From IMG/VR virus record IMGVR_UViG_3300025648_000085, positions 1 to 24,002 of that record: a stretch of DNA of 24,002 bases. One strand, written 5' to 3'. Every line of letters begins with the position of its first letter. The stretch's first letter is position 1. The notes under the pieces were generated by a model that had not been told where the DNA came from, searched no databases, and saw only the letters and a program-made list of their open reading frames with translations. A program made the translations under genes and the position numbers. Source of the stretch: a virus (lineage: Duplodnaviria > Caudoviricetes). Below are positions 930 to 19,778 of this stretch, one piece after another.

Positions 930-1196
930 TTATTCTCTTTCAATAAAACTGTTGTTTTTTGGCACAATTTCAGGCCAGACCCATAACCATGATTTAGGAA
1001 ACATATCTTGGCGAGTTACTAAGCCATGCGATTCTTTTTCGATAAGGGCTGCAAGCATCATTAGCTTATCAACTGGAATAGCGTTTTGTAGCTTCCATTT
1101 ATTAACTGCTTGAACTGACACGCCTGTTCTTTTGCTAACGGCTTTAACACCGCCCAAAAGACTTATCATTTGCTGGTGAGTAAGATTAAGGTTCAT
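930..1196 (-). CDS. Cro/YdaS-like helix-turn-helix transcriptional regulator
   Basis: LGGVKAVSKRTGVSVQAVNKWK HTH followed by IP...LIEKESHGLVTRQDMFP, typical of the Cro/YdaS family. Confidence 0.8.
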   Translation of the reverse strand: MNLNLTHQQMISLLGGVKAVSKRTGVSVQAVNKWKLQNAIPVDKLMMLAALIEKESHGLVTRQDMFPKSWLWVWPEIVPKNNSFIERE

Positions 1197-1202
1197 TACG
1201 CA

Positions 1203-1231
1203 AGTTTAACCCCAAAGTATTATTTTTACAA
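1203..1231 (-). promoter_or_regulatory. Sigma70-type promoter for the cro-like gene (leaderless transcript predicted)
   Basis: TTGTAA (1231-1226)-17 nt-TAAACT (1208-1203); the ATG at 1196 lies 7 nt downstream of the -10; no SD. Confidence 0.6.
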
Positions 1232-1237
1232 CACTTG

Positions 1238-1266
1238 TTGCAATTCTTTAAATTATGGTTTAAAGT
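1238..1266 (+). promoter_or_regulatory. Sigma70-type promoter for the recombination operon with overlapping operator-like palindrome
   Basis: TTGCAA (1238-1243)-17 nt-TAAAGT (1261-1266); CTTTAAA-N6-TTTAAAG at 1246-1265. Confidence 0.6.
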
Positions 1267-1308
1267 ATTACTTATAGCAATTTCGCTATGTATTTAAGGG
1301 GAACTTAA

Positions 1309-1539
1309 ATGTCTGAATTAAACCAAGTAATGCTAGAAATGGAAGAACGCTTAGAAATAGCGCTTCAAAACATGGAATTTGGCACAGAGTTAGCACAAGA
1401 CGATATTGATGTCATTCGTGCAGCTTGTGGCAAACCTAACAACAAACGCAATGTATTGCTTCAGTCTGTATTTGAAGATTTTGGTGGTATTTTTGGAAAT
1501 CCTCTTGAGTCTTTTCCAACAATTAGAGGTGCAAAATGA
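1309..1539 (+). CDS. Hypothetical protein
   Basis: 76-aa ORF, AAGGGGAA RBS, ATGA overlap with the next gene. Confidence 0.75.
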   Translation: MSELNQVMLEMEERLEIALQNMEFGTELAQDDIDVIRAACGKPNNKRNVLLQSVFEDFGGIFGNPLESFPTIRGAK

Positions 1540-1970
1540 GTCAATCTGAAAGCATTGCTAACTTAGCAAAAGCACTATCCATTGTTCAAGGACAACTTAC
1601 TTATGCGACCAAAGATTCTGCAAATCCGTTCTTCAAGTCTAAATACGCTGATTTGGAGAGTGTTTGGGATTCTTGCCGTTCTCTTTTATCTGCCAATGGG
1701 CTATCTGTTATACAAATGCCTGGAAACTATTTCGAGGGCCGTATGTGGCTAGTAACACGCCTTTGCCATGCGTCTGGAGAATGGATTGAGCAAGAAATGT
1801 CTATACCAGTTGCAAAACAAGATGCTCACGGCTGTTTAGCAGCTATTACCTATATGCGTAGAGGCGCTTTGACGGCTTTCTTAGGAATTGTCCAAGCTGA
1901 CGATGACGGCAATACAGCATCAAACAAAACAGAATTTAAACCAGCAGTAGTTAAAGCAAAGGAAATCTAA
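1536..1970 (+). CDS. erf: ERF-family single-strand annealing protein
   Basis: KDSANPFFKSKYADL, HASGEWI and AITYMRR...GIVQADDDGN motifs of the ERF superfamily. Confidence 0.9.
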   Translation: MSQSESIANLAKALSIVQGQLTYATKDSANPFFKSKYADLESVWDSCRSLLSANGLSVIQMPGNYFEGRMWLVTRLCHASGEWIEQEMSIPVAKQDAHGCLAAITYMRRGALTAFLGIVQADDDGNTASNKTEFKPAVVKAKEI

Positions 1971-2224
1971 TGTCTTATATTCCAAAAGAAGGCTCGGGGA
2001 GTTTATTCAAAAATGACCGCAAAACAACGGAAAATCACCCTGATTACACGGGTTCGATTATGGTTAATGGTAAAGAACATTACCTTTCGAGTTGGATTAA
2101 AGAAGGTAAAAAAGGCAAGTTTTTTAGCATTGCGATTGGCAAAGAAAAAGCACCAGTAGGATTTAAGTCTGCTGGTAGCGATGAAATTCAGCGCCATACC
2201 ATTGAAGATGATGTTCCTTTCTAG
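1970..2224 (+). CDS. Putative small ssDNA-binding protein
   Basis: GSLFKNDRK...HPDYTG...W core, acidic C-terminal DDVPF tail like SSB, adjacent to erf. Confidence 0.6.
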   Translation: MSYIPKEGSGSLFKNDRKTTENHPDYTGSIMVNGKEHYLSSWIKEGKKGKFFSIAIGKEKAPVGFKSAGSDEIQRHTIEDDVPF

Positions 2225-2233
2225 GAGATAGCC

Positions 2234-2431
2234 ATGCTGAGTCACATCAAAGATGTTATTGGCGAAAAGGCCATTATTACAATGGAAGCCTATGGGGTAG
2301 ATGAAGAAAGAAGGTTAATTTCTTTTGAACCCATAGATTTAGAGTTAATACTCAAAGATGTGATTCAGGTATGCGCTGATATGTGCATTACTGAAATAGA
2401 TAGAGAAGCAATTTTAGAATTACTTAAATAA
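2234..2431 (+). CDS. Hypothetical protein
   Basis: 65-aa ORF with AGGAG RBS inside the operon. Confidence 0.7.
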   Translation: MLSHIKDVIGEKAIITMEAYGVDEERRLISFEPIDLELILKDVIQVCADMCITEIDREAILELLK

Positions 2432-2450
2432 GCATTTAAAGGGGAAATAA

Positions 2451-3200
2451 ATGTCAGAACATTGGTACTGTGCCGTTACAGGCTCACCACGCTATACAAC
2501 TACAGGTAAAAATGGAAAAGAACGCAATACAACTTTGCGAGATGCAAAAGCAGCACCAGGCACTCTCGTACCTTCCGTTTCTACAATTAACAGCCAATTA
2601 TCTAAAGCTGGACTTGACACTTGGAAACAAACCCAAGTCTTGTATGCTGCTACAGAAAACCCACGATTAGATGGGGAAGATGAAAAATCTTGGATTTCTA
2701 GAATATTAGAGTTAGCCAAGCGCAAAAGTCGTGAAGCTGCTGATAGAGGCACAATTATCCACGATTGGATAGAAGCCCACTATTCGCAAGAATATGTGCC
2801 AGATATGCCAGCGTATGTCAAAACTGTAGATGAGGCTATAACGGCCCATTTTGGGGCGCAGTTATGGATTCCTGAACAGAGTTTAGTTAACGCAGCAGAA
2901 GGATATGGTGGTAAATGCGATTTGTATTGCAAGCCACACCATGACTTCTCTGGGGTCGTTATTGACTTCAAAACCACGGAGAAATTCCCTGGTGATTTAA
3001 CACCCTACCTAGAGCATACACTACAGCTTGCAGCGTATAGAGAGGTTTTAGCCCCATCTGCACGATGCGCTAATGTCTATATCAATGGTGAAACAAATGT
3101 AGTCGCTATTTATGAACATAGCGAGCAAGACCTTAGAGATGGCTACCAGATGTTTCTAAATTTGGTAAATATTTATAAATTGAAAAATAAGTTAAACTAA
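2451..3200 (+). CDS. PD-(D/E)XK exonuclease (RecB-like phage exonuclease)
   Basis: PSVSTI, RGTIIH, E..., GKCDL, IDFKT and QLAAY motifs; partner of ERF. Confidence 0.85.
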   Translation: MSEHWYCAVTGSPRYTTTGKNGKERNTTLRDAKAAPGTLVPSVSTINSQLSKAGLDTWKQTQVLYAATENPRLDGEDEKSWISRILELAKRKSREAADRGTIIHDWIEAHYSQEYVPDMPAYVKTVDEAITAHFGAQLWIPEQSLVNAAEGYGGKCDLYCKPHHDFSGVVIDFKTTEKFPGDLTPYLEHTLQLAAYREVLAPSARCANVYINGETNVVAIYEHSEQDLRDGYQMFLNLVNIYKLKNKLN

Positions 3201-3204
3201 TTAC

Positions 3205-3314
3205 GAGGCTGGCTTGGTTTCCCCTTCCATTACTCCTTCACACGAGAGTCAGCCTCACCTTCCAATGACCGAAAGCGTAAAGAAGCAAGTAGGTCGCCTT
3301 TTTGTCTCTTTTTT
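3205..3314 (+). ncRNA. Candidate small RNA / structured 3' element with pyrimidine-rich loop and loop-E motif
   Basis: 11-bp stem 3205-3215/3246-3256 with a CU-rich loop; second hairpin 3266-3296 with GAA/AGUA internal loop; T-rich tail; G-U pairs favour the + strand. Confidence 0.55.
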
Positions 3315-3368
3315 ACAACAAACATAGGGTATATCCTTATGTCAAAGTGCATGAAACTTTAATAAATT
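3314..3368 (+). promoter_or_regulatory. Putative promoter region with TACAACA and TAGGGTATATCCTTA motifs
   Basis: Same motif arrangement as 627-649 on the minus strand; ATGTCA-18 nt-TAAATT follows. Confidence 0.45.
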
Positions 3369-3461
3369 ACTTACATAGCAGGTCTTGACACTATTCAGCT
3401 TTATGGCCCTTTGGGATTTCAAACTAAAAAGACATGACCTGCTACTTTTAATTGGGGATTT

Positions 3462-3695
3462 ATGCAAACATATATTAGTAGTGTATTTGAGGGTGAAGCC
3501 CCTTGTGACCATTGCAGTCAAAAAACAGACTGTCAAGAGTATGAATTAGCTTGTAGGGCATTTTCTTATTATGTTTTGCATGGCAGATTTCACGACCATA
3601 CAGTCAGGATGCCAACCCATAACTTATTTAACAAAATCTTTAAAGAAGATGATAAAGCGTTAAAAAATTATCTTAAATCTAAGGAAGCAGAATGA
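3462..3695 (+). CDS. Small cysteine-cluster protein (metal or Fe-S binding)
   Basis: C-x2-C-x5-C-x6-C (PCDHCSQKTDCQEYELAC); GGGGA RBS; ATGA overlap with the next gene. Confidence 0.7.
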   Translation: MQTYISSVFEGEAPCDHCSQKTDCQEYELACRAFSYYVLHGRFHDHTVRMPTHNLFNKIFKEDDKALKNYLKSKEAE

Positions 3696-4471
3696 ACCCT
3701 ATTGCATTTGTAGTTACATCAACTAACCAAGGTACTCTTATTCTTAATAAAAACGACTATAAGATGGTAGAAGATGGTAAAGGCTTTGGAGTAGGATTTT
3801 CTTTATTAAATACAGGTAGTTACGATGCAAATGAAGTAGATTTTTTAAAGATTATTTTGCAAAAAAGGCGTGAAAACTTTGGTGATGGCGTAATAGCAAT
3901 AGATTGCGGTGCAAATATTGGTGTACATACAGTATCTTGGGGTAGATTAATGACAACTTGGGGTCATATTATTAGCCTAGAAGCCCAAGAAAAGATTTAC
4001 TATGCTTTGTGCGGAAATATCGCTATAAACAACTGTTTTAATGTCACGGCTAAAAATTTAGCAGTTGGCGCAGAAAATGGCAGCTTAACGATTCCAGAAC
4101 CCAATTATTTTAAGCCTTCTTCTTATGGTTCTTTAGAGTTAAAAGACCATCCAGAAAAAGAAGATATTGGTCAAGAAGTTACTAGCAAAAAACAAATTGG
4201 TCTAGTAACAATAGACTCTATAGGCTTGCAAAGATGCGACTTGATTAAGATTGATGTAGAACGCATGGAAGAAGAAGTATTAGCTGGCGCATGGAAAGTC
4301 ATAGATGAGTGCCATCCTGTGCTGTTTATTGAAGTAGCAAAGTGTACAAGTTTAGATGCAGCCTTAACAGAACATGGTTACAAACTATACCCATTAGGCG
4401 CTAATCTGTTAGCTGTGCATGAATCTGACCCTATGCAAGTTACTGTTAATGAAAATGGGCTAACAATATGA
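3692..4471 (+). CDS. FkbM-family SAM-dependent methyltransferase
   Basis: IDCGANIGVHT motif I, LEAQ, LIKIDVERMEEEVLAGA and PVLFIE motifs. Confidence 0.9.
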   Translation: MNPIAFVVTSTNQGTLILNKNDYKMVEDGKGFGVGFSLLNTGSYDANEVDFLKIILQKRRENFGDGVIAIDCGANIGVHTVSWGRLMTTWGHIISLEAQEKIYYALCGNIAINNCFNVTAKNLAVGAENGSLTIPEPNYFKPSSYGSLELKDHPEKEDIGQEVTSKKQIGLVTIDSIGLQRCDLIKIDVERMEEEVLAGAWKVIDECHPVLFIEVAKCTSLDAALTEHGYKLYPLGANLLAVHESDPMQVTVNENGLTI

Positions 4472-4668
4472 GATATAGACCTAAATCTGCTTTTAAAGAA
4501 ATGTTTAAGTATAAAAATCACATTACGCACACTCTTGAAAAGCTAGTCGCCATTGAAAGCAAAAGACGCATTGTAGAAGTGTCTAGTGGGCCATTATGGT
4601 ATATCTTTGGCTACAAATTAGTGTCTAAACCTTGGTTAACTTACGAGGAAATGTATGACTGCAAATGA
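4468..4668 (+). CDS. Hypothetical protein
   Basis: 66-aa ORF coupled by an ATGA overlap. Confidence 0.6.
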   Translation: MRYRPKSAFKEMFKYKNHITHTLEKLVAIESKRRIVEVSSGPLWYIFGYKLVSKPWLTYEEMYDCK

Positions 4669-5318: not shown

Positions 5319-5362
5319 TATAATAACGAAAACCCCTAGTAGTTTTCGCTACATAGGGGTTT
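5316..5362 (+). promoter_or_regulatory. Extended -10 promoter and leader hairpin of the HNH gene
   Basis: TG-A-TATAAT at 5316-5324; hairpin AAACCCCTA...TAGGGGTTT at 5330-5362. Confidence 0.55.
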
Positions 5363-5389
5363 CTGACCACCACAATATAGAGGTATTGC

Positions 5390-5881
5390 ATGGCTGACCA
5401 AATTATATCCCAACAAAAATTAAAAGAAACTTTTGATTACGAAAATGGAAATTTATACTGGAAAAATGCAAGACAAAGCATAAAAGCTGGTACTAAAGCT
5501 GGAACATTAAACCAAGATGGTTATGTTCATATTAAAGTTGATAAAAAAAGATACAGAGGTCATAGACTTATATTCTTCTATCATTATGGATATTTTCCTT
5601 TTGAGGTTGACCATATAAATGGAATAAGAAATGACAATAGAATTGAAAATTTAAGAGAAGCCACTAAAAGTCAAAACGCACATAATAAACAAAAACCAAT
5701 TAACAATAAATCAGGTGTTAAAGGTGTGCATTGGAGAAAAGACGCAAATAAATGGGCTGTTGAAATAGCATTAAATGGGAAAAAATACCATTTTGGTCAT
5801 TACACAGATTTTAAAGATGCTTGTTTTGTTGCTTTACAAAAGCGTTATGAATTACACAAGAATTACGCAAAAGCGCTTTAA
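5390..5881 (+). CDS. HNH homing endonuclease with C-terminal AP2-like DNA-binding domain
   Basis: HRLIF...VDHINGIRNDNRIENLREAT..QN; NKSGVKGVHW....KW.VEI...GK..HFG. Confidence 0.9.
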   Translation: MADQIISQQKLKETFDYENGNLYWKNARQSIKAGTKAGTLNQDGYVHIKVDKKRYRGHRLIFFYHYGYFPFEVDHINGIRNDNRIENLREATKSQNAHNKQKPINNKSGVKGVHWRKDANKWAVEIALNGKKYHFGHYTDFKDACFVALQKRYELHKNYAKAL

Positions 5882-19339: not shown

Positions 19340-19711
19340 CTAGTATTTAAGTTTTTCGTATGCTATTTCAGCTATTTGACGCTTTCGTGCTTCTTGGGAC
19401 TTTTTACTAATTTCTACGGCTTTTCTTTCCATAGGTACATCGTTGCCTAATTCAATACAATGGTTGCGTTTTAGGTTCTCTCTATGCTTAGAACGACTTG
19501 AAATCCATGTGCCATCTGCCATGCTAATGTGGCCTTGAATATCAGACATCACCATGTGGGTAGTCTGTCTAGGGGCATTTTGCTTCTCTAACCATGACTT
19601 TTTAGCTTCTTCGAGTCCCAAAGTGGGAGTCCATATTTCCATGAAATAATCTTCATCGCTAAGTTTTGCAACATGATTTCCTTCTTCATATCCGCAATTT
19701 GGGCATTTCAT
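19340..19711 (-). CDS. Hypothetical head-module protein (start revised to 19711)
   Basis: AAGGAG RBS before MKCPNCG; SMADGTWISSRSKHRENLK.N.CIELGND. Confidence 0.65.
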   Translation of the reverse strand: MKCPNCGYEEGNHVAKLSDEDYFMEIWTPTLGLEEAKKSWLEKQNAPRQTTHMVMSDIQGHISMADGTWISSRSKHRENLKRNHCIELGNDVPMERKAVEISKKSQEARKRQIAEIAYEKLKY

Positions 19712-19778
19712 TACATTCTCCTTATTTATGTCTAGAAAAACTGCCATAATTGGTGTAAATAATCTTTTGTAATCATTT

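Follow-up and report, generated by a model that had tools for sequence, protein, structure and literature searches.

Genomic context of the RNA array

The window, that is, the whole stretch of 24,002 nucleotides analysed here, is a 24-kb virus record from a freshwater phage. According to PHROG matches, its + strand carries a repressor-like gene and an erf-ssb-exonuclease operon, and its − strand carries lysis and virion genes. The final gene of the operon (2451-3200, + strand) encodes a PD-(D/E)XK-type exonuclease (PHROG 298 exonuclease, E = 3.5e-19; PF12705 on homologues), and an array of two structured RNA cassettes begins 4 nt 3′ of its stop at 3200. The 35,687-bp record G006 encodes an exonuclease identical to that of the window and carries the same RNA element. 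None of the five genomes tested yielded a tyrosine integrase. The host search returned a single match, a 4.8-kb contig in a Bacteroidetes MAG, and yielded no host; a betaproteobacterial host is suggested on the sole basis of the name of an Rfam motif and of tRNA matches in Burkholderia and Ralstonia phages. That motif, Betaproteobacteria-1 RNA (RF02932, 93 bits, 917-794, − strand), lies downstream of the repressor-like ORF at 930-1196, occurs in many relatives too and is the only Rfam match in the window. In a related genome (G001:C1) the exo-cassette region is present twice, at 1522 and 36936, which is probably a terminal redundancy of the assembly.

Fold and conservation of cassette 1

Cassette 1 (3205-3259, + strand) forms a three-way junction. 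A 10-bp stem P1 (3205-3214 with 3247-3256) supports two short hairpins, P2 (3215-3217 with 3227-3229) and P3 (3233-3235 with 3244-3246), and is followed by the tail ACC (3257-3259). The P2 loop, UUUCCCCUU (3218-3226, + strand), is conserved, predicted to be unpaired and complementary to an early-gene ribosome-binding site (RBS). The P3 arm, CUC-CUUCACAC-GAG (3233-3246, + strand), has a loop of variable type (3236-3243) and by its position presumably resembles the T-arm of a tRNA. The sequence-only reading had described this region as one sRNA with three anti-Shine-Dalgarno elements, two of them on a 30-nt loop above an 11-bp stem. The strings that it quoted are all in place (TTTCCCCTT at 3218-3226, CTCCTT at 3233-3238, CCTTCC at 3258-3263, and AAGGGGAAA at 2439-2447); the region is instead made of two separate cassettes in a modular array, and the supposed open loop folds as P2 and P3. 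The folding z-scores were −3.3 for cassette 1 alone and −2.4 for cassette 2 alone, while the entire stretch from 3190 to 3330 scored −1.1, no better than shuffles.

Among the best 80 loci, cassette 1 lies behind the exonuclease stop in all 78 that are complete (the other two end too early), and it is retained where an extra ORF is inserted after the exonuclease gene (L018 and L059). In 43 distinct cassettes drawn from the clade of the window (clade 1) and a five-C relative, the second pair of P1 is A-U in 27 and G-C in 16, and the fifth is C-G in 12, G-C in 12, U-A in 16 and mismatched in 3. These counts come from a script that worked by anchoring, because a MAFFT alignment misaligns helices of unequal length. 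P2 pairs were taken from each minimum free energy structure, so that only the variety of P2 counts as evidence; it is 3 bp long in the window, and relatives have longer covarying P2 and P3 stems. The median z-score of the 43 cassettes is −3.55, with 38 below −2, and the C-run is predicted to be unpaired in 42.

The 79 clade-1 cassettes contain TCCCCT in 78 cases, TTCCCCTT in 65, CTCCTT in 16 and CCTTCC in 8, and thus only the first of the three proposed anti-Shine-Dalgarno elements is a conserved, displayed loop. The other two do not hold up as loops: CUCCUU contributes its CUC to P3 as the 5′ strand, and CCTTCC consists of the RCC tail plus spacer. The AAGGAG offered as a target of CTCCTT does occur at 19723-19718; it is inside ORF 19340-19747 as listed and would serve as a site only with a later start. 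It had also been argued that an unconserved loop would reduce the element to a mere terminator, and the loop is conserved.

The P3 loop is TCACGG in 46 of the 79 clade-1 cassettes, TCCGTG in 17, CTT[CG]ACAC in 15 and of another kind in 1, and no consistent target for it was found in the phages' own genomes. The loop CACGGA (46 of 79), which we take to resemble a CsrA/RsmA site, and UCCGUG (17 of 79) are exact reverse complements, and as judged from complementarity these two types could pair loop to loop (examples of such clade-1 cassettes are L007:3533-3595 and L009:3755-3813). The loop CUUCACA, present at 3236-3243 in the window, recurs on covarying stems across scaffolds and clades, as a payload of loop-E cassettes in L017, L038, L361, L363, L376, L384 and L418; a consistent target for it was absent from seven phage genomes.

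Cassette 2 and the wider array

Cassette 2 (3267-3298, + strand) is of a loop-E type: a 4-bp stem, a GAAA/AAGUA internal loop, a 2-bp stem and the loop GUAAAGAA make up its body (3267-3295), which is followed by GCC (3296-3298). Across 11 aligned variants, 98.5% of the cells pair, four of the six pairs have changes on both sides, and the GAA/AGUA elements (GAAA and AGUA) are fixed in all 11. Related sequences can beat shuffles in such a comparison; slid controls dropped to 17-42%. The GAA/AGUA signature pointed out in the sequence-only reading is real and invariant, but it belongs to a separate and optional cassette, which 30 of the 80 best loci have and 50 do not. The loop-E scaffold was found in 53 distinct versions at 95 of 243 loci (some contigs counted twice), with payloads ranging from a tetraloop to about 90 nt. 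In our reading, cassette 2 is a loop-E-stiffened carrier of an exchangeable payload; a search of phage genomes found no target for the payload of the window.

A U-rich tract (3299-3314, + strand) closes the array and, as its sequence suggests, is a candidate terminator tail or RNase E site. Termination at this tract is possible. A terminator scan found no site at 3205-3314, and the array departs from a plain intrinsic terminator (a GC-rich hairpin with a 3-8 nt loop of free sequence and a U-run directly after) in that its loops are conserved. In relatives, one to four cassettes stand in tandem, separated by U/A-rich spacers of 6-10 nt, and the members are cassette 1, loop-E cassettes, a pseudoknotted cassette and, in L017 and L411, a tRNA-Asn; cassettes are gained and lost between close relatives. 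The pseudoknotted third cassette (GGGC-GUUAA...GGAUG...CCAAAU...GCCC) is found at 63 of the 80 best loci (e.g., in the region L005:3863-3946) and not in the window. Its long-range pseudoknot covaries strongly in distant clades (L359, L365, L371 and L373), it has no Rfam match, and it is a candidate ribozyme, aptamer or decoy. An apparent UUUUCCCC loop in L197 and L359 was considered as an anti-RBS loop and rejected, being half of a pseudoknot in another cassette.

In both cassettes of the window, the closing pair is G-C and RCC comes next, an arrangement shared with substrates of RNase P. In clade 1, every complete locus has a cassette 1 with a 5′ G, a closing paired C and then RCC; the search pattern required RCC, and no complete locus was lost thereby. 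The tails of the 53 loop-E cassettes are ACC in 32, ACT in 10, AAC in 9 and others in 2. The motif RCC at the 3′ end is reported to guide RNase P (PMC12710915). At the 5′ foot of P1, the indications of RNase P are the sequence hallmarks, namely the G1-C pair and the RCC tail, and from these we infer that each cassette may be released as a tRNA is. The tail CACCU was also considered as a mimic of the 16S end, and this was dropped because GCC, ACCC and ACT tails occur as well. ARAGORN recognised no tRNA or tmRNA gene in G006 (L092 and L093), which bears the same element. Overall, the array of this phage group, which has many metagenomic members, comprises at least three structured RNA scaffolds that match no Rfam family.

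Ribosome-binding sites with a run of G in the early region

The exonuclease RBS AAGGGGAAA (2439-2447, + strand) is the top predicted target of the P2 loop. The predicted duplex has 9 bp and −12.9 kcal/mol, and no other called start of G006 gives a stronger one with the loop; the four strongest predicted duplexes in G006 all involve AGGGGA starts in the exo-proximal region. Two further predicted targets have the RBS AAGGGGAA, one (1296-1303, + strand) before ORF 1309-1539, the first gene of the operon, and one (566-573, − strand) before ORF 364-561, and both positions agree with those first reported. The AAAGGGG of ORF 11-322 (330-336, − strand) is a weaker predicted target. Within the window, AAGGGGAA occurs only at the exonuclease start, at these two AAGGGGAA starts and as the antisense of cassette 1 itself.

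In 15 genomes, whose relatedness means that the pooled early/late test overstates the evidence, a four-G RBS was found at 107 of 484 called exo-proximal genes compared to 13 of 379 genes in the opposite-strand virion block. Each of the 15 genomes has 3-11 such sites in the exo-proximal region versus 0-2 in the virion block. Exo-proximal here means −9.5 to +2.5 kb of the exonuclease gene, with genes called by a crude caller and a further 39 genes in neither class, and "early" was assigned by position and gene function. The four-G site is therefore present on only about a fifth of the exo-proximal genes, and the virion genes mostly have AGGA-type sites. The A flanks of the G-run are modestly more conserved than the flanks of GGAG sites (0.57-0.68 compared to 0.40-0.57). 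Any Shine-Dalgarno-like word is enriched at gene starts, e.g., AAGGAGAW (20 of 29).

Loops and ribosome-binding sites in other clades

Covariation between loop and RBS was counted over 167 loci. A four-C loop occurs with a four-G exonuclease RBS in 78 of 78 loci, and a five-C loop goes with a run of at least five G in 25 of 25; the exception is L017, with six C in the loop and four-G sites. In four five-C genomes, five-G sites were found at 22 of 114 exo-proximal genes compared to 2 of 102 late genes. In a third clade, the same junction displays an ACACAA/ACAAAA loop. The 22 starts classified there, in 10 loci, include no four-G and one five-G site; a loop without a C-run thus accompanies canonical RBSs, and the same pattern was seen by eye in a metagenome scan. 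The exonuclease tree unites the five-C clade with the ACA clade (support 0.91), and the joining of the four-C clade is weak (0.39). These results suggest, on the thin basis of three related clades with two or three transitions, that loop and RBS change in step between clades. In the ACA clade, P3 is UCC-UUCACG-GGA, and CUCCUU is therefore largely stem there; once opened, it could pair with the canonical AAGGAG starts of that clade.

At early starts, two further clades (52 loci) have AGGUG, yet the RNA that they carry displays UGUCCC and/or CUCCUU, either on a loop-E scaffold or on a plain hairpin. No conserved anti-AGGUG loop was found in six genomes, using a loose scan that also missed a true cassette in some controls; a private RBS therefore does not require a loop that matches it. 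AAGGAG starts are few in these clades (0, 3, 6, 1, 0 and 0 in six genomes), and the seed CUCCUUGUU has no target in its own genome; both findings favour an outward target there. This seed (L113:4721-4775 and L124:4715-4770) is complementary to AACAAGGAG, which in another clade (L363 and L366) lies at the RBS of the first early gene, a match that may reflect cross-phage antagonism.

Promoter-proximal leaders of L380, L384, L403, L407 and L421 contain GUGA, then 5-10 A-rich nt and then AAGGA(G/A), and the CUCCUUCAC of this clade could pair with such leaders in two parts. The leader GUGA also closes a 5′ hairpin and stays where the CUCCUUCAC RNA is missing. Of the pattern scans for new clades, one gave mostly chance matches, an overly tight one gave only the subtype of the window, and a further one gave 13 distinct stem-closed matches, 12 of known types and 1 chance-like. 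The metagenome scan found no new C-run clade.

Comparison with known RNAs and early-to-late switches

RNAIII and RsaE are host-encoded RNAs of Bacillota that use an unpaired UCCC motif against G-rich RBSs, with extended pairing to specific targets. Cassette 1 has in common with them a UCCC-type loop facing a G-rich RBS, and homology is not expected.

C4 RNA is described as a three-stem phage RNA that RNase P cuts from a longer transcript at the foot of P1 and whose loop occludes an RBS (PMC5320573), and it also appears as a table entry in PMC2864571. On that description, cassette 1 has the same three-stem layout, with the anti-RBS loop first, as the C4 antisense RNA of phages P1 and P7 (RF01695). 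The junction closed by P1 is present, with covarying P1, P2 and P3, and the P2 loop is predicted to pair with AAGGGGAA as the b′ loop of C4 does with its RBS. In contrast, no counterpart of the a′ target upstream of the RBS was found, since 15 genomes contained no consistent 8-mer or 6-mer complement near the G-run RBSs; with a second loop that has no own-genome target, cassette 1 lacks the a′/b′ two-site specificity of C4. The RF01695 covariance model matched nothing in the window at the gathering score or at E ≤ 10, and none of five whole genomes at E ≤ 1. Unlike C4, cassette 1 is predicted to target a whole class of RBSs and lies in a multi-cassette array, and a further difference is the lack of a tyrosine integrase match in the five genomes tested. 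Thus, it works like C4 in layout and is not a member of the C4 family, having neither a model match nor an a′ target.

The cuckoo/alpha-r14 sRNAs are 2-4 adjacent hairpins that each display CCUCCUCCC, a constant pyrimidine loop on variable stems (PMC4615179). Cassette 1 also keeps a pyrimidine loop constant on variable stems, but its UCCCCU loop is single and belongs to a three-way junction that ends in an RCC tail, and no CCUCCUCCC repeat was found.

In phage T4, RegB inactivates early mRNAs through a motif in the translation-initiation region, spares late mRNAs and eases the early-to-late transition (PMC3014915). We propose RegB as a functional analogue of cassette 1, with the difference that RegB is a protein, a nuclease dependent on ribosomal protein S1, whereas the agent predicted here is a base-pairing RNA. 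The SAS of Cluster K mycobacteriophages recurs upstream of some of the phage genes, where it overlaps the RBS, and was proposed to bind an RNA or protein (PMC3203893). It measures 13 bp, and the available text of that report names no partner, while the motif here has 7-9 nt and the genome that carries it also encodes an RNA loop complementary to it.

The Rfam search that the sequence-only reading had called for gave no match to the element at the gathering score or at E ≤ 10, and Rfam on the cassettes of 20 and of 8 related loci returned only Betaproteobacteria-1 RNA and tRNA. A blastn search of 3200-3460 against annotated phages gave no match. No description of the cassette RNA was found in the literature searched; four supplementary files of Fremin 2023 (PMC10690425) do not contain the motif, and an earlier, uncharacterised listing elsewhere in that work is possible. 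Taken together, the cassette array is a real, conserved and apparently uncatalogued phage RNA.

A proposed mechanism and its alternatives

The best reading of these data, with a probability of about 0.45, is that an RNA cassette released by RNase P would block early ribosome-binding sites as a class. The cassettes would be transcribed with the exo operon, and the transcript would be processed like a tRNA precursor, with RNase P cutting at G3205 and G3267 and 3′ trimming in the U-rich spacers. Released cassette 1 would then accumulate, and its UUCCCCUU loop would pair in vivo with AAGGGGAA leaders on both early arms. Such pairing would presumably repress, rather than otherwise affect, the translation of early genes as a class, and virion genes with AGGA-type sites would escape. 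The likely use would be to close the early phase by a delayed negative feedback and, in addition, to silence the early genes of a related phage that arrives later. This mechanism is consistent with the conserved covarying folds, the G-C-closed and RCC-tailed stems, the complementary loop, the early/late partition of RBSs and the covariation among clades. On the other hand, few related clades covary, the AGGUG clades mismatch, and RCC is replaced in 21 of the 53 loop-E cassettes. The anti-RBS reading of the cassette-1 loop is well motivated but unproven. Of the earlier proposal of a 3′-derived sRNA that shuts down early translation, what stands is a structured non-coding RNA that closes the exo operon on its 3′ side and has a UUCCCCUU loop that is conserved, matched to early RBSs and covarying with them. 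Three RNA runs of the same study had no reads on 1000-4500, which speaks neither for nor against expression.

The targets of the loops might instead lie outside the phage, in host mRNAs or in the early RBSs of competitor phages, so that the match to own sites in the clade of the window would be a by-product or serve kin exclusion only. The AGGUG-start clades speak for this, since they display UGUCCC and/or CUCCUU with few AAGGAG starts of their own, which looks like self-avoidance, and the CUCCUUGUU seed finds its complement in other phages rather than at home. However, in the clade of the window and its five-C relative the loop tracks the own RBS, and 63 of the 79 clade-1 cassettes lack CUCCUU; we consider a purely outward role unlikely. 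Somewhat less probable still is a role of the cassettes as tRNA-like decoys or as RNAs that bind proteins, for instance to counter defences that cut tRNA or sense RNA; the loops would then be protein sites and the RBS complementarity incidental. Acceptor-like ends, a tRNA in the same array, cassette turnover among close relatives and the recurring loops CUUCACA, GUAAAGAA and ACAAAA, for which no antisense target was found in phage genomes, would fit such a role, but it leaves unexplained why the length of the C-run follows that of the RBS G-run and why loops that go with canonical RBSs lack the C-run.

An action in cis appears improbable; here the folds would process, stabilise or terminate the exo mRNA at its 3′ end, or the loop would fold back to RBSs on its own transcript. 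The array does start directly past the stop and end in a U-tract, and on the shared transcript the exo RBS, its best target, lies 770 nt upstream of it. A terminator, however, needs no conserved loop, junction or RCC, nor up to four closely spaced tandem cassettes; the terminator scan lists nothing at the element, and matching RBSs are also found on early genes of the opposite strand, beyond reach in cis. Very improbable is the other role suggested in the sequence-only reading, that cassette 2 imitates the sarcin-ricin loop of rRNA and decoys ribosome-targeting enzymes. The sequence signature is there, GAA and AGUA being invariant across a covarying stem, and a GNRA loop caps some distant variants. 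However, the 5′ strand bears GAA and the 3′ strand AGUA, which we take to be the reverse of their order in the rRNA motif. In the window the cap is GUAAAGAA on a 2-bp stem, with no GAGA tetraloop beside the bulged-G motif, while ribotoxins are reported to read this tetraloop together with the bulged G (PMC2896532). For lack of the GAGA tetraloop, and with a cap that is freely swapped for unrelated payloads, the mimic fails, and 50 of the 80 close loci do without the cassette altogether.

Returning to the early-RBS-blocking cassette, a wider version of this reading, doubtful as it is, would be that genes are split by RBS dialect and that an RNase P-released RNA reads the early dialect as an RNA-only counterpart of T4 RegB. 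This RNA would be one unit of an interchangeable, tRNA-operon-like array in which each G-C stem with its RCC handle carries a swappable loop, some of the loops being directed at the dialects of rival clades. If true, one 55-nt RNA would give temporal control and kin exclusion over an entire class of RBSs, and it would offer an account of why phages maintain private start-associated motifs on their early genes, as has been asked for the SAS of mycobacteriophages. Natural compensatory pairs exist, namely four C with four G and five C with five G.

Other elements past the array

An imperfect dyad, TAGGG-N5-CCYTA (3325-3339), lies just past the array, is kept in nearly all clades seen and is likely an operator ahead of the next promoter. 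Between a promoter-like stretch and ORF 3462, a long stem AGCAGGUC/GACCUGCU (3376-3444, + strand; z-score −3.0) surrounds an exchangeable payload of about 45 nt, of which relatives have at least three types. Finally, a hairpin, AAACCCCTA-GTAG...CTAC-A-TAGGGGTTT (5332-5369), is located just upstream of an HNH endonuclease gene (5390-5881).
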